A stretch of 64,000 bases of DNA from Acidimicrobiia bacterium (GTDB lineage: Bacteria; Actinomycetota; Acidimicrobiia; IMCC26256; PALSA-610), in NCBI GenBank assembly GCA_052148155.1, contig JBKQIY010000048.1:11131-75130 (forward strand), in the 5' to 3' direction. This document shows, piece after piece, positions 17,162-32,557 of the stretch. The notes beneath the pieces were generated by a model, which was not told where the DNA came from, did no database searches, and saw only the letters and a program-made list of their open reading frames with translations. The first letter of the stretch is position 1, and each line of letters starts with the position of its first letter. The position numbers were made by a program, and so were the translations under genes.

Positions 17162-18427
17162 TCACGATCCCTCGGGGACGAGCCGGACGATCGCCGCCAC
17201 CGCGCGGTAGGCAGCCTCGGCCGGCCCGAGCTCCTCGGGCCGCATCAGGTTGGCCATGATCCGCAACACCCATTCCATGAGGGTGCGGCTTCGCATACCA
17301 ACGCGGGTGAGTTCGCGCATCACTGCCGGGTTGCCAATCGCGCGCACAAAGGTACGAGCGACCTTGAAATACAGGCCGTACACCTCGTCGAGCCGTTCGG
17401 AGTAGGTCTCGAGGGCGACATCGTCGCCGGTCAGTAACGCAAGGTCTACGGCGTCGGCGCCAAGCCGTCCGGTCTCGTACGCGAGGGAGATTCCTTCGCC
17501 GTTGAACGGATTGACCGAACCCGCCGCGTCGCCGACCACGAGATACCTCGACCCCACCCGCGGCGTCACCGACCCACCGGTCGGGAGACGGCCCCCAGTG
17601 GGAGGGCCGGTCGCGGTCTTCGGCGAGATGCCCCACCGAGGTGGAGCGGTCGCGCAGAACGCGTCCATCAAATGGGTCGTGTTCACGTTCTTCCAGCCGG
17701 TGAAGGTCGACAGCAGCCCGACTCCGACGTTCACCGTTCCGTCACCAACCGGAAATATCCACCCATATCCTGGCAAATGGTTCCCATCGCGGTCGCGGAG
17801 GTCAAGATGGCTCTCGATCCACGGATCGTCGTGGAGCGGACTGGTGAAATAGCCGCGGATCGCCATCCCCAGCGGATAGGTCCGGTTGCGGGCCGTGCCC
17901 AGGGCCCGGCCGAATCGCGAGTTGGCGCCGTCGGCGACGATCACATACCGGGCCCGCAGCGCACGAGTCGTTCCAACCTCGTTGTCGTGCACCATCGCGC
18001 CGACGACCAGGCCGTTCTCGATCAGCGGTTCAGTGGCCTCCGTCGCCGCCAACAACCTGGCGCCCGCCTTCACCGCACGTTGGGCAACCATGTCGTCGAG
18101 CTCGCTTCGTCTCACGATGTAGCCGTACGGCGGAAAGTCCGGATGATCGGGCCATGCCAGCTCGAGGGTGATGCCATGCGCGATCGAGCGCAGCCCGTCG
18201 AAACGCTGAAATTGGCTCAGCTGGTCGGCCAGGCCCATGTCGTGCAGTTGACGGACCGCCCGGGGCGTGAGGCCGTCGCCACAGGTCTTGTCCCGCGGGA
18301 AGCGCTTCTTGTCGACCACCACGACCTGGTGACCGAGCGTCGCGAGCCAATAGGCGGCCGACGCCCCCGACGGCCCGGCACCCACGACGAGCACATCGAC
18401 GTGCGGGTCCGCGGGTTGGATCACCAC
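17162..18427 (-). CDS. Geranylgeranyl reductase family FAD-dependent oxidoreductase (possible menaquinone/isoprenoid side-chain reductase)
   Basis: FAD-binding N-terminus VDVLVVGAGPSGASAAYWLA followed by RFPRDKTCGDGLTPRAV, typical of the geranylgeranyl reductase family. GTG at 18427 or 18424 precedes the Rossmann fold; the upstream ORF part is Arg-rich. Confidence 0.75.
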   Translation of the reverse strand: MVIQPADPHVDVLVVGAGPSGASAAYWLATLGHQVVVVDKKRFPRDKTCGDGLTPRAVRQLHDMGLADQLSQFQRFDGLRSIAHGITLELAWPDHPDFPPYGYIVRRSELDDMVAQRAVKAGARLLAATEATEPLIENGLVVGAMVHDNEVGTTRALRARYVIVADGANSRFGRALGTARNRTYPLGMAIRGYFTSPLHDDPWIESHLDLRDRDGNHLPGYGWIFPVGDGTVNVGVGLLSTFTGWKNVNTTHLMDAFCATAPPRWGISPKTATGPPTGGRLPTGGSVTPRVGSRYLVVGDAAGSVNPFNGEGISLAYETGRLGADAVDLALLTGDDVALETYSERLDEVYGLYFKVARTFVRAIGNPAVMRELTRVGMRSRTLMEWVLRIMANLMRPEELGPAEAAYRAVAAIVRLVPEGS

Positions 18428-18567
18428 GCCATACTCACATGTGATGCGGTCCAGGGGCGCACCGGCAAAATTTTCCGGCCCGGCCCTGACGCGCGATGTG
18501 CCCAGGCCCGATCTAGCGTGGTAGCAAGAACTTCGCGCCCGCTTCCCGACAAGGAGCGCCCGGGCCC

Positions 18568-19179
18568 ATGCCCAACATCCACGTGAGCATGCTCGCCGTG
18601 CACGTGCCAAACGTGCTACCGAAGTACGTCCCGTGGATCGACTTCGCCAAACACCACGGCTTCTACGTCGACTCCCATTCGCAGTGGGTCCGCCACGCCG
18701 GCCGCGGGATCTGGTGGACGCTGCTCTTCACGATCGGCCTCGTCATCGGATACCGGATGACGAAGAAACCCAAGCCGGCCGAGCCAGCCACCTGGGCCCA
18801 GACAATTCTCGGAGCGCTCGGCGTGTGGGCGATGATGGCGTTGGGCTACGGCACCATCCCCCACGAGTGGCTGACCTTCGCCAACTCGTACCTCAACTTC
18901 AACACTGCGACGTTCGTGATGACAAAGAACCGATTCATCCATTTCGACATCACCCGCTCGATCGTGGGCGACGTCGGCGTGACCGTCATCTACGGAATCG
19001 TGCTGACCATCCAGCTCATCATGTTCGCCCGCTGGCAGAAACGCCCGGTGGCCGAACCAGACGATGGCGTGGCCGCCACGGAAGCATCCGAGGGCGGCGG
19101 CCCGTTGTCGCGCCTGCTCAGACGTCGAGAAAAGCGCGTGTCGGCCTATGGCCGTCCCGTCACGACGGCGGGAGACTGA
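18568..19179 (+). CDS. Uncharacterised membrane protein (about 3 TM), first gene of the Rieske/cytochrome b operon
   Basis: ATG preceded by AAGGAG. Hydrophobic segments include WWTLLFTIGLVIGY, ILGALGVWAMMALGYG and VGVTVIYGIVLTIQLIMF. Its stop overlaps the ferredoxin start (TGATG). I do not recognise a family. Confidence 0.6.
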   Translation: MPNIHVSMLAVHVPNVLPKYVPWIDFAKHHGFYVDSHSQWVRHAGRGIWWTLLFTIGLVIGYRMTKKPKPAEPATWAQTILGALGVWAMMALGYGTIPHEWLTFANSYLNFNTATFVMTKNRFIHFDITRSIVGDVGVTVIYGIVLTIQLIMFARWQKRPVAEPDDGVAATEASEGGGPLSRLLRRREKRVSAYGRPVTTAGD

Positions 19180-19592
19180 TGGCCAGGACAGATGCCAACC
19201 CGCCGATGCCGGAGTTCTCGACCTCCTACGTCTTGCAGGAGGTCGACCCGAAGTGGCTGACGCAAGCGGTCAAGCCCAAGCAGTTCCTGCACATCGACCA
19301 GGCCGAATGCATCCTCTGCGAAGGTTGCGTCGACATCTGTCCGTGGAAGTGCATTCACATGCTCTCCAACGACGCGATCGACGAAGCCGTCAACGCCGAC
19401 CAGCCTGGCGACGACCCGAAGGACCACGTGTTCTTCGTGGTCGACGAAGACGTCTGCACGCGGTGCGCACTGTGCGTCGACCGGTGCCCCACCGGTGTCA
19501 TCATCCTCGGCAAGGTCACCGACCAGTGGGGCGACGGCGACCCGAACGAACGAACCAACCGACACGGCTACGCCTACGGCGTCCGCTTCTAA
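19179..19592 (+). CDS. 2x[4Fe-4S] ferredoxin-domain protein
   Basis: Two CxxCxxCxxxCP motifs, CILCEGCVDICP and CTRCALCVDRCP. Translationally coupled to the preceding membrane protein and 20 nt upstream of cytochrome b. Confidence 0.85.
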   Translation: MARTDANPPMPEFSTSYVLQEVDPKWLTQAVKPKQFLHIDQAECILCEGCVDICPWKCIHMLSNDAIDEAVNADQPGDDPKDHVFFVVDEDVCTRCALCVDRCPTGVIILGKVTDQWGDGDPNERTNRHGYAYGVRF

Positions 19593-19612
19593 CCGGGAGA
19601 TAGGAAGCTCGG

Positions 19613-20410
19613 GTGGCGAACGGAAACGGGAGCAGCAACGGAAACGGCCACCGCCCGAAGATCGCGGACCGTGTCGCCGCGGTTGGCGACAAGACGCGGT
19701 CGTCGCAGGCATGGAACTCGATATTTCGGCCCGGCTCGATCTACCGCAAGGGTTACACCGACAGTCCCCGCAACCGCTCGTACGTGATCATGAACAACGT
19801 GCTGTACCACCTTCACCCGGTGAAGGTGAAACGGCACGCAGTGAAGGTCTCCTACACGTTGTGCCTCGGAGGCCTGTCGTTCTTCTTGTTCATTCTGCTC
19901 ACGGTCACCGGCATCTTCTTGATGTTCTTCTACCGACCGACCGTGACCGACGCCTACGCCAACGTGCAGAACCTCGAGACCGCTGTCGCGTTCGGTTCAC
20001 TCGTACGAAATATGCACCGATGGGCGGCGCACCTCATGGTGCTGTCCGTGTTCTTGCACATGGCGCGTGTCTTCTACCACGGCGCGTACAAGTCGCCGCG
20101 CGAGTTCAACTGGGTGATCGGCATCATCTTGTTGACCCTCACCCTGCTGCTCTCGTTCACCGGTTACCTGCTCCCGTGGGACCAGCTGTCGTTGTGGGCC
20201 GTGACCGTCGGGACGAACATGATGGGTTACACGCCCGTCTTCGGGAGCTCGGTCAACTACGTCCTGCTCGGATCGAGAACCATCAGCGGAGACACACTGC
20301 TGCGCTGGTATGTGCTGCACGTGTTGATGTTGCCGTTCGTGATCGTCATCTTCATGGCCGTCCACTTCTGGAGAGTCCGCAAAGACGGCGGCATCTCCGG
20401 ACCGCTCTAG
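19613..20410 (+). CDS. Cytochrome b, N-terminal (b6-type, 4-helix) half
   Basis: Cytochrome b/b6 N-terminal domain signatures: FGSLVRNMHRWAAHLMVLSVFLHMARVFYHGAYKSPRE, WVIGIILL..FTGYLLPWDQLSLWA, LRWYVLHVLMLPFVIVIFMAVHFWRVRKDG. These supply the paired haem-ligand His residues. The protein ends after helix D, so cytochrome b is split. Confidence 0.9.
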   Translation: MANGNGSSNGNGHRPKIADRVAAVGDKTRSSQAWNSIFRPGSIYRKGYTDSPRNRSYVIMNNVLYHLHPVKVKRHAVKVSYTLCLGGLSFFLFILLTVTGIFLMFFYRPTVTDAYANVQNLETAVAFGSLVRNMHRWAAHLMVLSVFLHMARVFYHGAYKSPREFNWVIGIILLTLTLLLSFTGYLLPWDQLSLWAVTVGTNMMGYTPVFGSSVNYVLLGSRTISGDTLLRWYVLHVLMLPFVIVIFMAVHFWRVRKDGGISGPL

Positions 20411-20431
20411 CGCGAAGGGAGGCGAAACCAC

Positions 20432-21289
20432 ATGGCCGACGAAGTCCCCGAACATCTCCTCAGACGCAGCCGTGAGCGCCGCAAGGCGCTGGGCCTCCCC
20501 GTAGAAGGCGACGACGGCGACACCGAGAGCGCGCCGGAAGTACCCGCGGCTGACGCCGCAACTTCCGAGCCCGTCGAAGAAGTCGCGCCGGTCGCAGCGG
20601 ACAGCGGCGACGCGATCACCGAAGACAAAGGCGGAGTGCCCGCGCATCTCCTCGAACGCTCGCGGCGCCGCAAGGCCGCGCTCGCGGGCGGAGGCGGCGA
20701 CGCCGCACCCGCCGCAGCAGGAGCCGGCGGCGGAGCCGCACGCACCGCGACCGCGGTCGCGGCGCCAGCGCCGACCGGGACCGGTCCCGGTGGCCACACG
20801 CAGCGGCTGCTCACCGTCGTGAAGTCGGGTTCAATCCAACAGACGCGCGCCGAGGCCCAGGACAAGGTCCACGTGTGGCCGCATCTGCTCGTGCTCGAGT
20901 TCGCGTCGATCCTGTCGTTGATGGCGTTCCTCACCGTGTTCTCGGCGCTGGTCAAAGCTCCCCTGCTCGGCCTCGCCGACGTCAACAGCACACCGAACCC
21001 GTCGAAGGCGCCGTGGTACTTCCTCGGACTGCAAGAACTCCTGAAGATGTTCAACCCGGCCGTCGCCGGTGTGTTGATTCCCGGTATCGCGCTCGGGTTG
21101 CTCGCGATCACGCCCTACATAGACAAGAACCCGTCGCACAAACCGACCGACCGGAAGTTCGCGATCACGATGATGTCGATGTTCTTGATGATGTGGGCGA
21201 CGCTCGTCATCATCGGATGTTTCTTCCGCGGACCAGGATTCAACTTCGTGTTCCCGTGGGACAAACAAGGAATATTCTTCGAGCTGTAG
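20432..21289 (+). CDS. Cytochrome b C-terminal half (subunit-IV-like) with a ~130-aa charged N-terminal extension
   Basis: Strong RBS (AAGGGAGG). The C-terminal membrane part has the PEWY-box equivalent NPSKAPWYFLGLQELL and three TM segments. The N-terminal extension contains two copies of a basic motif (see findings). Confidence 0.85.
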   Translation: MADEVPEHLLRRSRERRKALGLPVEGDDGDTESAPEVPAADAATSEPVEEVAPVAADSGDAITEDKGGVPAHLLERSRRRKAALAGGGGDAAPAAAGAGGGAARTATAVAAPAPTGTGPGGHTQRLLTVVKSGSIQQTRAEAQDKVHVWPHLLVLEFASILSLMAFLTVFSALVKAPLLGLADVNSTPNPSKAPWYFLGLQELLKMFNPAVAGVLIPGIALGLLAITPYIDKNPSHKPTDRKFAITMMSMFLMMWATLVIIGCFFRGPGFNFVFPWDKQGIFFEL

Positions 21290-21299
21290 GAGCTGTGCG

Positions 21300-22145
21300 A
21301 TGGCAGTCGCCATCCCGATCATCGTCATCCTTGTCCTCGCCGTCGGCACGACCATCGTGCTCGCCGCGAACCGTCAACGCGGCACGACCGGCTTGCTGTC
21401 GCGCGAGACGCGCCGGCGCGACTCCGCCACCGAACCGGCGCCGAGTGCTGAGCTGTCAACCTCGACCGAGCTCGAAACCGCCGGCCGCGAACGGGCCGAC
21501 GACACTCGCGCCACGTATGAGAACGTCCCCGCGGCCCGCGGACGTGGCGATGTCACACGCTGGGAACCGGTCGATGAGGAGGAGCTCGGTGTCGCCCGCC
21601 GACAGTTCCTCAACCGGGGTCTGGGCCTGGTCGTCGGGTTTTCGCTCGCCGGTTTCGGCGCCGCATGCCTCGGGTTCTTGTGGCCGACCGGTTCGTCGGG
21701 CTTCGGCGGCAAGATCGGGGCCGGCAAGACCAGCGACATCATCACGTATGTCACGTCACACGCCGCGCCGTTCTACGTTCCCGAGGCGCGTGCCTACGTC
21801 CAGCAGTATCCGGCAGTGGATCTCCCGGCCGCGAAGAAGGTCTACAGCGCGGTGACCTATGCGGGCATGGAAGCGGGTTTCATCGCGCTGTATCAGCGTT
21901 GCGTACACCTGGGTTGTCGCGTGCCGTGGTGCCAGACGTCGCAGTGGTTCGAGTGCCCGTGCCACGGCTCGAAATACAACCGTGTCGGCGAGAAGAAAGC
22001 CGGTCCGGCACCTCGGGGTCTCGACCGGTTCGCGATCATCGTGGGCGGCGGAATGTTGACGATCAACACCGGCGACATCGAGCTCGGACCACCGATCGGC
22101 ACGAACACGACCGGACAGCAACAGGAAGGACCGCTTTGCGTCTGA
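21300..22145 (+). CDS. Rieske [2Fe-2S] iron-sulfur subunit
   Basis: N-terminal TM anchor plus Rieske boxes CVHLGCRV and CPCHGSKY. Confidence 0.9.
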   Translation: MAVAIPIIVILVLAVGTTIVLAANRQRGTTGLLSRETRRRDSATEPAPSAELSTSTELETAGRERADDTRATYENVPAARGRGDVTRWEPVDEEELGVARRQFLNRGLGLVVGFSLAGFGAACLGFLWPTGSSGFGGKIGAGKTSDIITYVTSHAAPFYVPEARAYVQQYPAVDLPAAKKVYSAVTYAGMEAGFIALYQRCVHLGCRVPWCQTSQWFECPCHGSKYNRVGEKKAGPAPRGLDRFAIIVGGGMLTINTGDIELGPPIGTNTTGQQQEGPLCV

Positions 22146-22185
22146 TCAGCACTCATCGTCGCGAACCCGAGGCGATGGATGCCGC

Positions 22186-23691
22186 GTGGAGTGTGTCGTG
22201 ACTGTTCGCCACGTTCTCATCGGCCTGAACCTCGTCGCGGTCCTCGCGATCATCGTCTATGTGATCTGGGCGGTGCTGTCGCCCAAACGCGCCTCCGACG
22301 AGACGATGCCGGCCAATCTCACGCCGTTCCTCGCCGACGACGATCTGGAAAGTCGCCGCCTCGAGCGCGTGCAGGGTTGGGCGCTCCTGTTTGCGGCGAT
22401 CGTCGCGGTGGCGCTGCCGTTGTACTGGCTGCATGAGCCCGCCCGTCAGAAGGAGTCGGTCAACTACTTCAATCAGAACGCGGTTTCCCGCGGCGAGGTC
22501 CTGTTCTCGAACTCCGCGATGCTCACCTACGACCCGACCAATTCACTGCAATGCGCCAACTGCCACGGCGTCACCGGAGGGGGCGGTCAGGTCCCGACGT
22601 TCGTCAACGGCCAAGCGGTGATCTGGCAGGCGCCGCCGCTCAACACGGTCTTCGAACGCTTCGAGGAAGATCCCGATTGCTCGATGCCGGTCGACGACCA
22701 ACCTGACGGCACCATCTGCGACATCACCGACATCATCACCTACGGCCGGCCCGGAACACCGATGCAGGGGTGGGGCGTAGCCGGCGGCGGCCCGAAGAAC
22801 GTGCAATCGATCCAAGACCTCGTCGCGTACTTGCGCACGATCCAGCTGACGCCCGCGCAGATCAAGGCGCAGGAGGCGGCCAACATCCCCGCGGCGCGGT
22901 CCACCGATCCCAATACCGTGTGCCCGCAGTACGTCACGTGCCCAGTCGTGCAAGAGGACGCGGCACGGGCGACCCTCGAAACCGACACCAAGGCCTTCGA
23001 CGCCGATCGCACCGCGCTCCAAGCAGCGCTCATGCAACCAGACGCGACCGATGCCCAACTCACCATGACGTGCGACTCGATCATCGCCCAGGTGAAGACG
23101 AACCCCAAAACGGTGATTCCGGCCCAAGCCGTCGCGTGCGGGACGTACACGACAGCCGCAGCGCTCGTCACGACCGACCAGAACGCGTTGGCCTGGACCA
23201 TCAGCTGGGTGGCACGCCGCGTGAACGTGAGCGATGGGCAGATCCTGTTCGAGGCGAACTGCGCGCGGTGCCACACCCAGGGCTGGTCGACCTTCGATTC
23301 GGCCGTTCCGCCCGATCAACCGGGCGGCATCGACGGGCTCGGCCCGCCGGGCGGCGGCGGTGGCATCGGTGGTGGGATCGGCCCTAATCTCCGCAACGGT
23401 GACGAGATCCGCCGCTTCGGCGACGACCTGTCCGGCGGGTTCGCGGCGCAGGTCAGTTTCGTGATGACCGGGTCGATGCCGTTCAAGGCGTACGGCAATG
23501 CCGGCATCGGATCCGGCCGCATGCCAGGCTTTGCCAACATGCTGACAAAGGATCAGATTTCAGAGATCGTGAGCTACGAGCGATACTGCCTCGACTCGTC
23601 GACGTTCACTGCGACCGAGCCGGTGTGCGCGACTCCGACGACGTCGGAGGTGGCGCCGACCACAACGACGACCGTGAAAGCGGCGGGATGA
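22186..23691 (+). CDS. Membrane-anchored dihaem cytochrome c
   Basis: N-terminal TM segment and two CxxCH motifs (CANCHGV, CARCHTQ), separated by a long insert. Gly-rich segment GPPGGGGGIGGGIGPNL. Start 22186 or 22198 (both GTG). Confidence 0.85.
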   Translation: MECVVTVRHVLIGLNLVAVLAIIVYVIWAVLSPKRASDETMPANLTPFLADDDLESRRLERVQGWALLFAAIVAVALPLYWLHEPARQKESVNYFNQNAVSRGEVLFSNSAMLTYDPTNSLQCANCHGVTGGGGQVPTFVNGQAVIWQAPPLNTVFERFEEDPDCSMPVDDQPDGTICDITDIITYGRPGTPMQGWGVAGGGPKNVQSIQDLVAYLRTIQLTPAQIKAQEAANIPAARSTDPNTVCPQYVTCPVVQEDAARATLETDTKAFDADRTALQAALMQPDATDAQLTMTCDSIIAQVKTNPKTVIPAQAVACGTYTTAAALVTTDQNALAWTISWVARRVNVSDGQILFEANCARCHTQGWSTFDSAVPPDQPGGIDGLGPPGGGGGIGGGIGPNLRNGDEIRRFGDDLSGGFAAQVSFVMTGSMPFKAYGNAGIGSGRMPGFANMLTKDQISEIVSYERYCLDSSTFTATEPVCATPTTSEVAPTTTTTVKAAG

Positions 23692-23695
23692 CACG

Positions 23696-24508
23696 ATGCT
23701 GACGCACTTCGTCGCCGAGATCATCGAGGGCCCCGCCCACCCCAACCTGTGGAATCCGACCATCCTCGGGGTGCTCGTCGTCCTGTCCGCAATCGGACTG
23801 TTCTGCGGGTCCACGTACCTGCTGCTGGCAACCAATCTCGGGGCCCGGCTCGGATTCCTCGTCGCGTTCGCGTCGCTGACTGGGTTCTTGGTCATACTCA
23901 CCACGCTGTGGCTCACGTCGGGCAACAGCGGCATCGACCCGCCGCACGGCATCTCGCCGTCCTGGTCGGTGGTCGACGTCGTGAGCAATCCGGCAGAGTC
24001 GAAGATCCCCGCGGTGCGTGACATCGCCACGAAAGGCACACTCGCCACCGAAACCCAACTCGGCAACCTGCGCCCGGCCATGGACGCGGCGCTCGTCACC
24101 GCGGCCCCGATCGCGGGCGTGACACCCGCATCGCAGCCGTTCGCCAAGTTCTCGGCGTCGCTCGCCTATCTCACCGACTTCCCGGGCTACAAGACATACC
24201 TGCTCGGTGGTGGCACCAAGAACCTCTTCTGGCACAACCACGAGTACGCGGCCGCGCAGTTCTGCCCGACCGAGGCGAACACCCCACCGGGCGCGGTGCC
24301 CGCGTGCGACCCCTTGCAACCGACCGGGTACGCCATCCTCAGCTACAACTTCGGTTCGTTGCGCGAGCCTGTCGTGTTCCAGTTCTGGATTCCGTCACTG
24401 CTCTTATTCGGTCTGTCGCTGCTGGGCCTGCACTGGTACGAACTCGACGAGCGGAGGCGCAAGAAGGCCGCGCTCGCACCGGTGCCGGTCCCGACACCGG
24501 GCGCCTAG
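23696..24508 (+). CDS. Uncharacterised membrane protein (N-terminal TM pair, large extracytoplasmic domain, C-terminal TM)
   Basis: Starts 4 nt after the cytochrome c stop. TM segments ILGVLVVLSAIGLFCGSTYLLL, LGFLVAFASLTGFLVILTTLWL and FWIPSLLLFGLSLLGLHWY. No family recognised. Confidence 0.6.
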   Translation: MLTHFVAEIIEGPAHPNLWNPTILGVLVVLSAIGLFCGSTYLLLATNLGARLGFLVAFASLTGFLVILTTLWLTSGNSGIDPPHGISPSWSVVDVVSNPAESKIPAVRDIATKGTLATETQLGNLRPAMDAALVTAAPIAGVTPASQPFAKFSASLAYLTDFPGYKTYLLGGGTKNLFWHNHEYAAAQFCPTEANTPPGAVPACDPLQPTGYAILSYNFGSLREPVVFQFWIPSLLLFGLSLLGLHWYELDERRRKKAALAPVPVPTPGA

Positions 24509-24525
24509 GACCGAGGAGGTCTCGC

Positions 24526-24669
24526 ATGGTTCTCGCGCAGCAGCTCATCGACGCGAGTAAAGAAGGCGGTGCCGCCTTCCTCGCCTTCGCGATCATGGTT
24601 TTCCTGTTTGCCGGCTCGCTGTTCTACATGGACAAGGTGCGTCGCCGCCGCGACGAGCGAGGCCGTTAA
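24526..24669 (+). CDS. Small (47 aa) single-TM protein, last gene of the operon
   Basis: ATG at 24526 preceded by GAGGAGG at a typical spacing. Sequence MVLAQQLIDASKEGGAAFLAFAIMVFLFAGSLFYMDKVRRRRDERGR: one TM followed by a basic tail. Confidence 0.5.
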   Translation: MVLAQQLIDASKEGGAAFLAFAIMVFLFAGSLFYMDKVRRRRDERGR

Positions 24670-31815: not shown

Positions 31816-32490
31816 TCACCCGGCTTTCCCGGCCGACTGGCGATCGGGCGCGACGCCGCGCCGAAGTTGGTAGAAGGACAGGATTTGCAGCTCGATCGCC
31901 AGGTCGACCTTCCGGACCGACACAGTGTTGGGGACGGCCAGGACCGCGGGTGCGAAGTTGAGGATGGAGCGCACACCGGCGTCCACCAACCGGTCGGCGA
32001 CCTCTTGGGCGACGGGCGCCGGCGTGGCGATCATGCCGATCGTGATCTTTCGTTCGTCGACGATGTGGGCCAGCGCGGCGATCGGCTCGATCGCCAGCTC
32101 GCCGACCTCGCCGCCTACGAGGTCGTCGTCGGCGTCGACGAGCGCGACGATCCGAAAACCGCGCGCACCGAAACCACGGTAGTTGGCGAGCGCCCGGCCG
32201 AGGTTTCCGATTCCGACGATCACCACCGGCCAGTCGCGCGTGAGCCCAAGTTCGCGTGAGATCTCGTGGAGGAGGTAGTCGACGTCGTAGCCGACGCCCC
32301 GGGTGCCGTACGAGCCGAGGTACGAAAGGTCCTTGCGGACCTTGGCCGCGTTGACGCCGGCGAGCTCGGCGAGCCGTTCGGAAGAGATGGTCGCCACGTC
32401 GTGGTCGGCGGCTTCGAGCAGCGCCCGGTAGTACAGAGGCAGGCGCGCGACGGTCGCCTCGGGGATCCGGCGTCGTGCAGTGTCGCCCAC
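31816..32490 (-). CDS. rex: Redox-sensing transcriptional repressor Rex
   Basis: Rex-like N-terminal winged helix (IPEATVARLPLYYRAL, SSERLAELAGVNAAKVRKDLSYLGSYGTRGVGYDV) and NADH-binding Rossmann motif VVIVGIGNLGRALANY. First gene of a rex-hem operon, as in Streptomyces. Confidence 0.95.
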   Translation of the reverse strand: MGDTARRRIPEATVARLPLYYRALLEAADHDVATISSERLAELAGVNAAKVRKDLSYLGSYGTRGVGYDVDYLLHEISRELGLTRDWPVVIVGIGNLGRALANYRGFGARGFRIVALVDADDDLVGGEVGELAIEPIAALAHIVDERKITIGMIATPAPVAQEVADRLVDAGVRSILNFAPAVLAVPNTVSVRKVDLAIELQILSFYQLRRGVAPDRQSAGKAG

Positions 32491-32539: not shown

Positions 32540-32557
32540 TTGTGACCGCATTCTCAA
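32540..32557. promoter_or_regulatory. Candidate Rex operator (ROP-like inverted repeat)
   Basis: TTGTGACCGCATTCTCAA matches the Streptomyces ROP consensus TTGTGAA-N4-TTCACAA at 12 of 14 specified positions. It lies 50-67 nt upstream of the rex start. Confidence 0.65.

Follow-up and report, generated by a model that had tools for sequence, protein, structure and literature searches.

A conserved eight-gene Rieske/cytochrome b operon in Acidimicrobiia with a ferredoxin gene and three further genes for membrane proteins

Introduction

Cytochrome b6f and the b6c complexes of Bacillus and heliobacteria (QcrABC, PetABCD) contain a cytochrome b which is split into a four-helix b6 protein and a three-helix subunit IV. 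Further characteristics are a CxGG motif for haem ci, a C-terminus ending in GISGPL, the Rieske boxes CxHLGC and CPCHGSxY and a c-type cytochrome as electron exit. All of these are shared by the operon described here. An 'APWY clade' of cytochrome b was defined by Kao & Hunte (2014; PMC4122944), who listed split APWY or PEWY cytochromes b for Rubrobacteridae and for the Acidimicrobidae member Ilumatobacter. That an Acidimicrobiia member has a split cytochrome b of the APWY type has thus been known since 2014, and the view taken in an earlier note on this DNA, that the split b6/subunit IV organization is typical of Firmicutes, cyanobacteria and heliobacteria, is outdated. The APWY clade includes Geobacter ExtOPQ and, judged by taxa and CxGG motif, probably corresponds roughly to subfamily G of Dibrova. 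The papers on this clade cover cytochrome b, the Rieske protein and the Qo motif, and we found neither a ferredoxin gene nor the genes named g1, g7 and g8 below mentioned in them; nor did we find a paper in the literature that describes the ferredoxin or accessory genes of the operon.

Two other systems are relevant for comparison. The QcrCAB-CtaCDEF (bcc-aa3) supercomplex of Mycobacterium and Corynebacterium comes from the same phylum as the operon and has, like it, a membrane-anchored dihaem cytochrome c that could feed the oxidase directly and extra N-terminal helices on the Rieske protein. Oxidase gene adjacency is also shared, in the case of the operon by its distant clades. In the anammox bacterium Kuenenia stuttgartiensis, the complexes Kuste4569-4574 and Kustd1480-1485 combine a Rieske/cytochrome b core and haem cN with cytoplasmic FeS clusters on the n-side, and AlphaFold3 models of Kuste4569-4574 place a cytoplasmic FeS/NAD(P) oxidoreductase beside haem cN.

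Results

Organization of the operon

The operon is located on an Acidimicrobiia contig, in a stretch of 64,000 nucleotides that was analysed as a whole (the window). It consists of eight genes on the + strand (18568-24669), in agreement with the gene content and order claimed in the earlier note:

18568-19179, + strand: g1, membrane protein, 203 aa
19179-19592, + strand: g2, 2x[4Fe-4S] ferredoxin, 137 aa (Pfam Fer4 families)
19613-20410, + strand: g3, cytochrome b6, 265 aa (Pfam Cytochrome_B PF00033, 7.5e-49)
20432-21289, + strand: g4, subunit IV, 285 aa (Pfam Cytochrom_B_C PF00032)
21300-22145, + strand: g5, Rieske protein, 281 aa (Pfam Rieske)
22186-23691, + strand: g6, membrane-anchored dihaem cytochrome c, 501 aa (Pfam Cytochrom_C and Cytochrome_CBB3)
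23696-24508, + strand: g7, membrane protein, 270 aa (no Pfam match)
24526-24669, + strand: g8, single-TM protein, 47 aa (Pfam matches at chance level, sub-threshold)

The intergenic gaps from g1 to g8 are -1, 20, 21, 10, 40, 4 and 17 nt. The note had mentioned several overlapping stop and start codons; only g1 and g2 overlap, sharing a single base (TGATG). The motifs that it quoted are all present (the cluster motifs of g2, APWY in g4, CVHLGC and CPCHGS in g5, CANCH and CARCH in g6). Shine-Dalgarno-like GGAG or GAGG sequences precede most of the eight genes, the weakest being that of g6. NCBIfam assignments of g2 to g6 agree with those of Pfam, and no reliable family was found in Pfam or NCBIfam profile searches for g1, g7 and g8, with only sub-threshold, chance-level Pfam matches for g1 and g8. 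The operon was claimed to be of a non-qcrCAB type, and indeed the scores for QcrA, QcrB and QcrC (26, 121 and 26 bits) are far below the NCBIfam cut-offs of 275, 500 and 200. In the window, the operon is flanked by a nuo operon on one side and by a rex-hem operon on the other.

Conservation, linkage and transcription

In a search starting from g1, all eight genes were found in the same order in 12 of 12 Acidimicrobiia MAG loci with enough DNA. Shorter Acidimicrobiia loci were all consistent up to their contig ends, the sole exception being a MAG contig (L026) on which g1 and g2 are followed by unrelated genes. In the reverse test cytochrome b was the starting point, and 80 metagenome contigs were analysed, with denominators that vary by gene. 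Ferredoxin g2 is located directly upstream of cytochrome b in 61 of 62 contigs, and g1 is present in 52 of 52 after inspection of tblastn misses. The Rieske protein (48/48), cytochrome c (44/44) and g7 (35/36) are similarly constant. On contig L090, g1 is directly followed by cytochrome b, with no ferredoxin between them. Because L090 is without the ferredoxin and L026 has g1 and g2 without the remaining operon, the ferredoxin may be dispensable or these contigs may be faulty.

Four more distant Actinomycetota lineages have ferredoxins that are 35-45% identical and cytochromes b that are 64-68% identical. The order in three of the four is small TM protein, ferredoxin, cytochrome b6, subunit IV (APWY), Rieske protein, cytochrome c and a g7-like protein; on the short contig of the fourth (L037) only the first three genes are visible. 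In these lineages terminal oxidase genes lie next to the operon in divergent orientation; they are of the caa3 type (COX2 with fused cytochrome c, COX1, COX3, COX4), FixO/COX1 or COX1. The operon also adjoins CtaA/CtaB and cytochrome c maturation genes (ResB/CcsA/DsbD or Ccm).

Soil metatranscriptome contigs with at least 85% identity cover all eight genes, and single contigs span g1/g2/g3, g3/g4, g5/g6 and g7/g8, which amounts to four gene junctions; these contigs come from relatives, are strandless and may contain DNA. The eight-gene arrangement is not a chance arrangement, because the same order was found in more than 100 independent loci; in addition, the GC content of the operon (0.64-0.65) equals that of its flanks. 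The operon is real and widely conserved in soil and aquatic Actinomycetota.

As far as in silico work reaches, the proposal of the earlier note passes on the three points on which it had been staked. The ferredoxin and flanking membrane genes are found together with those for cytochrome b and the Rieske protein in searches from g1, from distant ferredoxins and from cytochrome b, metatranscriptome contigs bridge gene junctions, and the three membrane proteins match no characterised bc-complex subunit in Pfam, NCBIfam, the PDB (g1 and g7) or a fold search (g7).

The split cytochrome b

The g3 protein is a four-helix cytochrome b6 with histidine ligands at 135/149 and 236/251. Its CLGG at residues 84-87 is the attachment motif of haem ci (CxGG) and its C-terminus reads RKDGGISGPL, both of which resemble haem ci-binding cytochromes b6. 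The best match in the PDB is spinach b6 (1.1e-51). The N-terminus carries about 35 extra residues, within which HLHPxKxKRH is invariant. The g4 protein is a three-helix subunit IV whose residues 193-196 form the Qo motif APWY, where b6f and b6c have PEWY or PDWY. It has a low-complexity cytoplasmic N-terminal extension of about 145 residues with two copies of [IV]P[EA]HLLxR[SA]xxR[RK], and of 78 related subunit IV ORFs, 49 likewise have two copies. The operon further differs from b6f and b6c in the long cytoplasmic extensions on b6, subunit IV and the Rieske protein, in having no small Pet subunits and in its four extra conserved genes, one of which encodes a 2x[4Fe-4S] protein. The split, b6-type cytochrome b also sets it apart from bcc-aa3.

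In common with the APWY clade, the operon has the APWY Qo motif, CxGG and the S-Y signature of the Rieske protein, and g3 passes the ExtP model. In contrast to that clade, its haem ci motif is LCLGG instead of mostly WCMGG, and its context is aerobic respiration instead of extracellular or anaerobic electron transfer. The score of g3 with the curated ExtP equivalog is 306.6 bits (cut-off 290), compared to 215 bits with the b6 model and 121 with actinobacterial QcrB, and NCBI MAG records carry the Ext name. The operon could on this basis be read as a selenite/tellurite reduction (Ext) system, a reading to which we give hardly any chance and which is already contradicted by the gene content: other ext genes are absent (no rhodanese, outer-membrane conduit or multihaem cytochromes), subunit IV scores 51 bits against an ExtQ cut-off of 150, and the neighbouring genes are respiratory. 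Most likely, the match of g3 to ExtP reflects shared membership of the APWY clade.

Rieske protein and cytochrome c

Hydropathy indicates that g5 starts with a helix, followed by a loop on the cytoplasmic side, the twin-arginine motif RRQFLNR with its anchor helix, and the cluster domain with the boxes CVHLGC and CPCHGSKY. The S-Y residues that mark high-potential Rieske proteins according to Kao & Hunte (2014; PMC4122944) are present, and by this rule g5 is of the 'high-potential' type, a potential that is predicted from two residues. Its closest solved relative is Kuste4569 of Kuenenia (PDB 9rk4), which has a potential of +303 mV; in the PDB, Kuenenia Rieske proteins match best, and the Rieske subunits of b6f come next.

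The g6 protein has hydrophobic N-terminal anchor helices and haem motifs at residues 123 (CANCH) and 359 (CARCH), and no sequence relative of it was found in the PDB. It is a separate dihaem cytochrome c, neither cytochrome f nor the subunit IV-cytochrome c fusion found among b6f and b6c complexes. Orthologues are dihaem in two of the distant loci (L034, L035) and monohaem in two others (L030, L032), and in the latter two the neighbouring COX2 has a fused cytochrome c. We propose that g6 is the electron exit to a haem-copper oxidase.

The ferredoxin and its proposed membrane partner

The g2 protein contains the cluster motifs CILCEGCVDICP and CTRCALCVDRCP. Nine cysteines (C-x2-C-x2-C-x3-C-P-W-x-C and C-x2-C-x2-C-x3-C-P) are invariant across five clades, the two motifs are separated by a 30-residue insert, and they are preceded by an N-terminal lead, ..Y.L.EVD..WL...VKPK. 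Neither a signal peptide nor a hydrophobic segment was found by sequence and hydropathy, and g2 has no flavin or nucleotide domain and no site for NAD(P) or another substrate. With its two CxxCxxCxxxCP motifs and insert, g2 resembles NuoI/NdhI and PsaC, small fixed relays on membrane complexes, and in the PDB it matches only generic polyferredoxins and NuoI/NdhI. NuoI is also its best curated NCBIfam match, but the score of 43 bits is far under the cut-off of 113, the N-terminal lead and the ninth cysteine (CPWxC) are specific to the g2 family, and a genuine nuoI is present elsewhere in the window, inside the nuo operon. Among the Acidimicrobiia loci, no protein of the operon is as conserved as g2: its mean identity is 93%, that of cytochrome b is 89%, and the others reach 48-80%.

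In several clades the stop codon of g1 either overlaps the start of the ferredoxin gene or directly adjoins it. The structure model of g1 consists of three helices (42-66, 76-120 and 131-157) and has low confidence (pLDDT 58). Conserved in the protein are the motif GYGTIPHEW and a basic C-terminal tail with SAYGRPVTT at its end. Its 488 homologues are all annotated as 'hypothetical', none of them has a Pfam domain, and no sequence relative was found in the PDB. In all distant clades a shorter, two-helix version of g1 precedes the ferredoxin and keeps W..IP(H/S)xW and the basic tail. We propose that g1 is an anchor or partner of g2.

The twin-arginine motif of g5 speaks for a rival reading. If g2 were exported in folded form, 'hitch-hiking' on the Tat-dependent Rieske protein, it could serve as an outer-face FeS relay like the FeS subunit of alternative complex III. 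The most conserved loop of g1 (GYGTIPHEW...NFNTATF) is indeed predicted to face outward if its basic C-terminal tail is cytoplasmic. We nevertheless consider export very improbable: g2 has no signal peptide of its own, the potential of ferredoxin-type clusters would not suit a place between c haems and a high-potential Rieske protein, the outward path is already supplied by g6, and the parts that could hold g2, namely the long extensions on b6, subunit IV and the Rieske protein, all lie in the cytoplasm.

CCB proteins are needed in cyanobacteria and plastids to attach haem ci covalently, and we know of no described machinery for this step in Gram-positive bacteria. An alternative to a role of g2 in electron transfer is that g1 and g2, perhaps together with g7 and g8, are assembly or maturation factors that act in haem ci attachment on the cytoplasmic side or in insertion of the Rieske cluster. 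This fits with the n-side location of haem ci attachment, with the lack of a Pfam CCB family in the operon, with the observation that small membrane proteins and redox helpers from inside cytochrome operons often serve as such factors, and with the one contig that is without g2 (L090). Assembly factors, however, usually evolve faster than catalytic subunits, and g2 is more conserved than cytochrome b. Its position at the head of the operon is fixed and translationally coupled in every clade examined, and there is no likeness to known haem lyase or FeS assembly families. A role in assembly is on these grounds quite unlikely.

A proposed FeS branch on complex III

We lean, with modest conviction, towards the explanation that the operon encodes a complex III, namely a menaquinol:cytochrome c oxidoreductase, which has an FeS side branch on the cytoplasmic side, at its haem bH/ci end. 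Within the 'APWY clade' it is best read as a Rieske/cytochrome b complex of the b6c type, carried by Acidimicrobiia and other non-Actinomycetia Actinomycetota. Because of the oxidase adjacency in the distant clades, we infer that it is the complex III of the lineage, whose genomes may also carry a canonical qcrCAB. An extra electron branch on its cytoplasmic side is probable because a highly conserved FeS protein is combined with three membrane proteins outside described families. The overall interpretation of the earlier note is in this respect partly supported, and g1, g2, g7 and g8 would be physical subunits, with the FeS protein as a putative electron entry or exit branch.

In the proposed mechanism, quinol would be oxidized at the Qo site, which cytochrome b6, subunit IV (APWY) and the Rieske protein of the high-potential type would build together. 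The first electron would pass from the Rieske protein via g6 to a haem-copper oxidase, and the second would cross the membrane via haems bL and bH to the covalent haem ci at the Qi site. The 2x[4Fe-4S] protein g2, cytoplasmic and translationally coupled with g1, would sit on the cytoplasmic (n) face as a peripheral subunit in stoichiometric amount. Held there by the tail of g1 and by the long extensions that cytochrome b6, subunit IV and the Rieske protein have in the cytoplasm, it may lie close enough to haem bH/ci for electron transfer. The two clusters of g2 could then form a side branch for the exchange of electrons between the cytoplasm and the low-potential chain or Qi site.

The anammox complexes are, in our best reading, the closest analogue of the proposed branch, a likeness in the arrangement of g2 and the anammox FeS domain. 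The energetic argument is the same for both, in that a high-potential Rieske protein works together with a quinone of low potential. The n-side partner in anammox, however, has more than 500 residues, FAD, an NAD(P) site and four FeS clusters, whereas g2 has 137 residues, two clusters and no substrate site; the anammox complexes also have multihaem and HAO-like subunits where the operon has a simple mono- or dihaem cytochrome c.

The FeS branch could also be the main purpose of the same complex. As proposed for the anammox complexes, the high-potential Rieske protein would drive the second electron onto very low-potential haems, and quinol-based electron bifurcation would deliver a low-potential cytoplasmic reductant via the bound [4Fe-4S] pair; in reverse, electrons at the ferredoxin level would enter the quinone pool via haem ci. 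The S-Y signature of g5 and the +303 mV of its closest solved relative point in this direction, as does the extreme conservation of g2, which fits a catalytic role. The Rieske protein and haem bP are said to have potentials that are symmetric about that of the quinone, which for menaquinone would place bP near -400 mV or lower, and the APWY motif has been tied to reverse operation (Kao & Hunte, 2014; PMC4122944). On the other hand, the Rieske potential is here a prediction from two residues, menaquinone use is assumed from the taxonomy of cultured relatives, g2 has no NAD(P) or other substrate site and the operon no conserved partner gene, and the adjoining terminal oxidase and cytochrome c maturation genes are those of an ordinary respiratory complex III. 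On balance, bifurcation as the main purpose is unlikely.

Accessory membrane proteins g7 and g8

In the favoured explanation, a complex III with an FeS side branch, g7 and g8 would be accessory membrane subunits, possibly at the oxidase interface. The g7 protein has two N-terminal helices and one C-terminal helix, with an alpha/beta domain of about 150 residues between them that is predicted to be extracytoplasmic and was modelled at pLDDT >90. No sequence relative was found in the PDB and no significant fold match (best E 0.26), and none of the solved accessory subunits of bcc-aa3 matches g1 or g7. Invariant features of g7 are DPPHG and the pair Cys190/Cys204. Its 1658 homologues are all annotated as 'hypothetical' and have no Pfam domain, and in all distant clades a homologue occupies the same position in the operon.

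The g8 protein is a single helix with a conserved LFYMDKVRRRR, and its gene is preceded by a strong ribosome-binding site (GAGGAGG). It is present with 65-96% identity in 12 of the 12 complete Acidimicrobiia loci and is the least universal member of the operon, being recognized by motif in only 11 of 80 metagenome loci, where it sometimes has an N-terminal extension that resembles a lipobox.

Organization of the operon

The eight genes of the operon (g1-g8) lie on the same strand and are closely spaced, as the earlier note had described, and a Shine-Dalgarno-like sequence precedes most of them. The several overlaps that were also claimed reduce to one, between g1 and g2, which share a single base; the intergenic distances from g1 to g8 are -1, 20, 21, 10, 40, 4 and 17 nt. 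The GC content of the operon is that of its flanks. A scan of the operon found no promoter-like site, and terminator-like sites occurred at chance level. Upstream, on the minus strand, are the nuo operon and a gene of the FAD-dependent geranylgeranyl-reductase family, and downstream, also on the minus strand, are hemL, hemB, cobA-hemD, hemA and rex. The order nuo, reductase, operon, hemL/hemB is kept in essentially all Acidimicrobiia loci. There is no oxidase gene in the 64-kb window.

Genes of the operon and two neighbouring genes
17162-18610, minus strand: FAD-dependent geranylgeranyl-reductase-family gene, located between nuoA and g1 in 29/29 Acidimicrobiia loci
18568-19179, plus strand: g1, membrane protein
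19179-19592, plus strand: g2, predicted 2x[4Fe-4S] ferredoxin
19613-20410, plus strand: g3, cytochrome b6 (Pfam Cytochrome_B, PF00033, 7.5e-49)
20432-21289, plus strand: g4, subunit IV (Pfam Cytochrom_B_C)
21300-22145, plus strand: g5, Rieske protein
22186-23691, plus strand: g6, cytochrome c with two cytochrome c domains
23696-24508, plus strand: g7, 270-aa membrane protein without reliable Pfam or NCBIfam match
24526-24669, plus strand: g8, 47-aa single-TM protein without reliable Pfam or NCBIfam match
31816-32490, minus strand: rex-type redox-sensing repressor (Put_DNA-bind_N and CoA_binding domains), heading the hemA/cobA-hemD/hemB/hemL string

The core complex belongs to the APWY clade

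The g3 protein is a four-helix cytochrome b with the ligand pairs His135/149 on helix B (spacing 14) and His236/251 on helix D (spacing 15), and its best PDB matches are cytochromes b6. Its haem-ci motif CxGG (CLGG, C84; haem attachment is a prediction) and its b6-like C-terminus (RKDGGISGPL, on the pattern RK..GISGPL) are both invariant. Subunit IV is encoded separately by g4 as a protein with three hydrophobic segments (PF00032), in which the Qo motif is the known variant APWY. The g5 protein is a membrane-anchored Rieske protein (PF00355) with the boxes CVHLGC and CPCHGS; its best PDB matches include Rieske subunits of b6f complexes, and the closest solved Rieske protein is Kuste4569 of Kuenenia (9rk4, +303 mV). 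The g6 protein contains two CxxCH motifs and no more. PDB sequence and profile searches with g6 and g4 gave no usable match. The four-helix cytochrome b with two histidine pairs, the separate subunit IV and the Rieske boxes all agree with the b6f/b6c type, and on these motifs the core is most likely a b6c-type Rieske/cytochrome b complex. All motifs previously quoted for g2-g6 were found in the proteins, and the contrast drawn with the actinobacterial qcrCAB genes, which encode an unsplit long QcrB, a three-helix QcrA and a dihaem QcrC, was confirmed: the cytochrome b is split, and scores against bc1_QcrB_actin (121.5 bits, cut-off 500), QcrA (26.1, cut-off 275) and QcrC (25.6, cut-off 200) are all far from their cut-offs.

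Kao & Hunte (2014) defined an 'APWY clade', characterized by the Qo motif APWY, the CxGG motif and a Rieske protein with a predicted potential of Mid+ to high. The operon has APWY in g4, CLGG in g3 and, following CPCH in g5, the S-Y signature, and g3 passes the ExtP model; judged by these signatures, the complex is a member of this clade. A split cytochrome b was already listed for Ilumatobacter, a member of the Acidimicrobidae, and none of the APWY complexes had been characterized at that time (Kao & Hunte, 2014, PMC4122944). What was known before is that deep-branching Actinobacteria have a split cytochrome b of the APWY type. A search of open-access papers and bioRxiv found no description of a small ferredoxin gene or subunit for such complexes, of the g1, g7 and g8 families or of the conserved seven-to-eight-gene architecture.

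The best curated NCBIfam model for g3 is ExtP of Geobacter (306.6, cut-off 290), and an identity of the operon with the Ext system for selenite/tellurite reduction was considered on the basis of this match. Subunit IV reaches 51 bits with the ExtQ model (cut-off 150), and the rhodanese-like protein, outer-membrane conduit and multihaem cytochromes of the Geobacter system are absent from the operon and its flanks. Because the other ext genes are absent, the Ext identity was rejected and the ExtP match is taken to indicate clade membership, not function. In NCBI MAG records, g3 orthologues of Actinomycetota carry the name 'selenite/tellurite reduction operon b-type cytochrome ExtP' with no ext genes nearby, which is probably an over-annotation spreading through these records.

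Conservation of the operon as a unit

The distribution of the operon was surveyed with two peptide motifs from an alignment of g1, using one genome per species. This gave 29 loci in MAGs labelled Acidimicrobiia, Actinomycetota, Actinomycetes or Gaiellales, except for one 4-kb contig (L002) labelled 'uncultured Burkholderiales', which was rejected as a sign of wider distribution and is a probable binning error. All eight genes are present in order in the 12 of 12 loci with enough downstream DNA, and shorter loci agree up to their ends. The exception is locus L026 (10001-11500), where unrelated genes come directly after the series nuo, reductase, g1, g2; either a chimeric assembly or a true rearrangement could account for this. 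Averaged over 11 diverged loci, identity is 48% for g1, 93% for g2, 89% for g3, 75% for g4, 65% for g5, 51% for g6, 58% for g7 and 80% for g8.

Searched exhaustively at the level of 50%-identity representatives, the g2 family proved small, with 166 representatives at E <=1e-10, many of which are fragments. A few full-length members have 38-50% identity to g2, and the contigs of four of these were looked up. At L030 and L032/L033 the order is a two-helix protein of 126-128 aa, ferredoxin, b6, subunit IV (…NPSKAPWYFLGLQELLRY), Rieske protein and monohaem cytochrome c, ending with a g7-like protein and a protein of 34-41 aa; this operon divergently adjoins genes for a caa3 oxidase, CtaA/CtaB and ResB/CcsA/DsbD. 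The order is also kept at L034 and at L035/L036. L034 has a dihaem cytochrome c and adjoins system II maturation genes as well as a FixO/COX1 oxidase; L035/L036 adjoin COX1 and the ccm (system I) genes and have rex on their downstream side. The short contig L037 holds the first three genes only. Cytochrome b identity across these distant clades is 64-68%, and the source organism, where given, is Actinomycetota at phylum level only.

The reverse test started from cytochrome b and covered the best 80 metagenome contigs. The g2 gene lies immediately upstream of cytochrome b in 61 of the 62 testable contigs, and a g1-type gene precedes g2 in 52/52 (tblastn misses were inspected). Subunit IV was found in at least 54 of 56, the Rieske protein in 48/48, cytochrome c in 44/44 and g7 in 35/36, and g8 was found in a minority only. 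In contig L090 (1816-3510) a g1-like gene is followed by about 200 bp and then cytochrome b, with the ferredoxin gene absent; it is the sole such case among the 62 contigs and a genuine-looking exception. The surveys from g1, from distant ferredoxin relatives and from cytochrome b together bear out the expectation that the ferredoxin and the flanking membrane genes co-occur with the cytochrome b/Rieske genes.

In the distant clades the operon repeatedly lies next to genes for terminal oxidases, haem A synthesis and cytochrome c maturation, which suggests that the complex works as an ordinary respiratory quinol:cytochrome c reductase. A rival explanation is that bifurcation or reverse operation is the main function; a bifurcating output would be compatible with the data, and the neighbouring oxidase genes argue for the respiratory role. 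The g6-type cytochrome c is monohaem in L030 (10810-11553) and L032 (10814-11515), two loci with a cytochrome c domain fused to the adjacent COX2; the window, L034 and L035 encode a dihaem form. This pattern, seen in few loci, fits a direct hand-over of electrons within a supercomplex and is suggestive of it.

The ferredoxin is the most conserved protein of the operon

The g2 protein consists of 137 aa with Fer4 domains only. Several Fer4 Pfam families score above cut-off, and two CxxCxxCxxxCP motifs, as expected of a bacterial-type 2x[4Fe-4S] ferredoxin fold, are found at residues 44-55 and 93-104. Its best curated NCBIfam model is NuoI, with a score far under cut-off, and PDB searches gave generic polyferredoxin and NuoI-type matches only. 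No signal peptide is present, and nine cysteines are invariant across clades. The ninth invariant cysteine follows the first motif (C-x2-C-x2-C-x3-C-P-W-x-C, residues 44-58, 19308-19352) in every clade. With the highest mean identity, g2 is the most constrained protein of the operon. Its small size, the absence of a signal peptide, the nine invariant cysteines, the translational coupling to g1 and a conservation exceeding that of cytochrome b are more readily explained by a buried FeS subunit present in stoichiometric amount than by an assembly factor or a soluble carrier. The stronger conservation of this small FeS protein relative to cytochrome b suggests a function outside current Q-cycle schemes.

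By default, g2 would be placed in the cytoplasm, where the complex has unusually large predicted extensions. A very unlikely alternative is that g2 is moved to the outer face by Tat hitch-hiking; the twin-arginine motif of g5 speaks for this, and the lack of a signal peptide in g2 itself speaks against it. The extensions were predicted from hydropathy and the positive-inside rule and comprise N-terminal stretches of about 85 residues in b6 and about 150 residues in subunit IV, an 86-residue loop in the Rieske protein and basic C-terminal tails on g1, g7 and g8. The subunit IV extension contains the basic motif [IV]P[EA]HLLxR[SA]xxR[RK] twice, at 20444-20482 and 20636-20674, and both copies are kept in 49 of 78 related subunit IV ORFs. 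Subunit IV of the distant clades has a different basic helix at this position. An invariant HLHPxKxKRH is present just before helix A on the cytoplasmic side of g3 (residues 66-75, 19808-19837).

Two candidate links of g2 to other proteins were not accepted as evidence. Fusions of g1 and g2, which could have served as Rosetta-stone evidence, were mostly frameshifted ORF calls among cluster representatives, and the one clean-looking fusion protein (P0279) has no record, its close relative having two separate genes. Protein P0392 is a fragment of a Pyr_redox_2 (GltD-like) protein with a g2-like C-terminal Fer4 domain (36% identity over 112 residues) that shows the five-cysteine spacing of g2. 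As a link between g2 and an NAD(P) oxidoreductase it is a lead and not evidence, the only neighbour on its short contig being an unrelated NirD-like Rieske protein.

A possible FeS side branch at the cytoplasmic side

Attachment of n-side (cytoplasmic) oxidoreductase modules to short cytochromes b is an idea already published (Dibrova 2013/2017; Kartal 2013). In Kuenenia, a pair of complexes contains a cytoplasmic FeS/FAD NAD(P) oxidoreductase; these complexes are expressed and their subunits co-migrate. In AlphaFold3 models the first cluster is about 20 A from haem cN, or the gap is bridged by an extra haem b, ligated by the N-terminal His of each cytochrome b monomer in the dimer. The HLHPxKxKRH motif of g3 may be equivalent to these predicted ligands. 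The anammox-type complex has a large n-side FAD/NAD(P)/multi-FeS subunit and multihaem/HAO-like p-side subunits, whereas the operon in the window contains neither.

From the g2 evidence, the large cytoplasmic extensions and the Kuenenia precedent, we propose that the complex may have an n-side FeS side branch at its bH/ci end. Such a branch could act as a relay or buffer, as a ferredoxin-to-quinone input or as a bifurcating output, each of which is compatible with the data. A rival explanation holds that g1 and g2 are maturation factors, for example for haem ci. Among haem-ci maturation proteins (system IV), the CCB1, CCB2/4 and CCB3 (YGGT) families gave no Pfam match to g1, g7 or g8 at E up to 0.1, and the features of g2 fit a subunit better than an assembly factor.

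A further-reaching version of the side branch, which we regard as rather unlikely, is that the bound ferredoxin is wired to haem ci/bH and makes an aerobic complex III a two-way redox junction between the quinone pool and ferredoxin-level carriers in the cytoplasm. If so, one direction would be a quinol-driven electron bifurcation that yields low-potential reductant in an oxygen-respiring bacterium, and the other a hard-wired ferredoxin:quinone reductase route via haem ci. The latter route is a long-standing postulate for cyclic electron flow in cytochrome b6f which, to our knowledge, has never been demonstrated. Should the FeS protein adjoin haem ci, the complex would offer the simplest natural system in which to ask whether electrons can pass between ferredoxin-level carriers and the n-side haems of a b6-type complex, and whether Rieske/cytochrome b complexes are able to bifurcate to low-potential acceptors, which has been proposed for anammox bacteria. 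The partner here would be one 137-residue protein in place of a large flavoprotein. Complex III of these Actinomycetota appears distinct from both the mycobacterial model and b6f.

The membrane proteins g1, g7 and g8

The three membrane proteins had not been recognized in the earlier note, and this stood: g1, g7 and g8 have no reliable match in Pfam or NCBIfam, and sequence and profile searches found no PDB relative of g1 and g7. They represent three protein families without a Pfam or NCBIfam model that are now annotated as hypothetical. The structure model of g1 is of low confidence (pLDDT 58). The g7 protein contains a well-modelled domain of about 150 residues, predicted to be extracytoplasmic, with an invariant cysteine pair; Foldseek found no significant PDB match to this domain (best E 0.26, TM-score <0.2, weak START/hot-dog-like matches).

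In three MAG loci (L004, L028 and L029) g1 is frameshifted and the other operon genes are intact; we suspect assembly indel errors and not pseudogenes. The g8 gene is undetected in many loci, and in some aquatic lineages (L047, L048, L063 and L080) its relatives are longer and have a lipobox-like start (..LTGCG.., ..GAGCS.., ..LAGCG..).

Occurrence, expression and neighbouring genes

Soils, lakes and the sea contain abundant Acidimicrobiia and related deep-branching Actinomycetota. Public metagenomes in which the operon was seen include those from soil, peat and permafrost, and the window locus is near-identical in soil metagenomes. Related sequence occurs in many soil and rhizosphere metatranscriptomes, and contigs from four of them (>=85% identity) cover every operon gene. 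Single contigs span g1/g2/g3 (19130-19741), g3/g4 (20094-20535), g5/g6 (21764-22280) and g7/g8 (24360-24653). The expected single transcript is supported over these four spans by contigs that come from relatives of the window organism, are strandless and may include DNA carry-over.

The mechanical ORF of the geranylgeranyl-reductase-family gene overlaps the start of g1; its actual start is probably near 18440, because the FAD domain begins at residue 70. From its sequence the gene could encode a MenJ-like menaquinone side-chain reductase. An operator search found no Rex operator-like site upstream of g1 and one candidate operator, TTGTGACCGCATTCTCAA (2 mismatches, 32540-32557), immediately upstream of rex. 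In L030 and L035, too, a rex gene is found, there immediately downstream of the operon.
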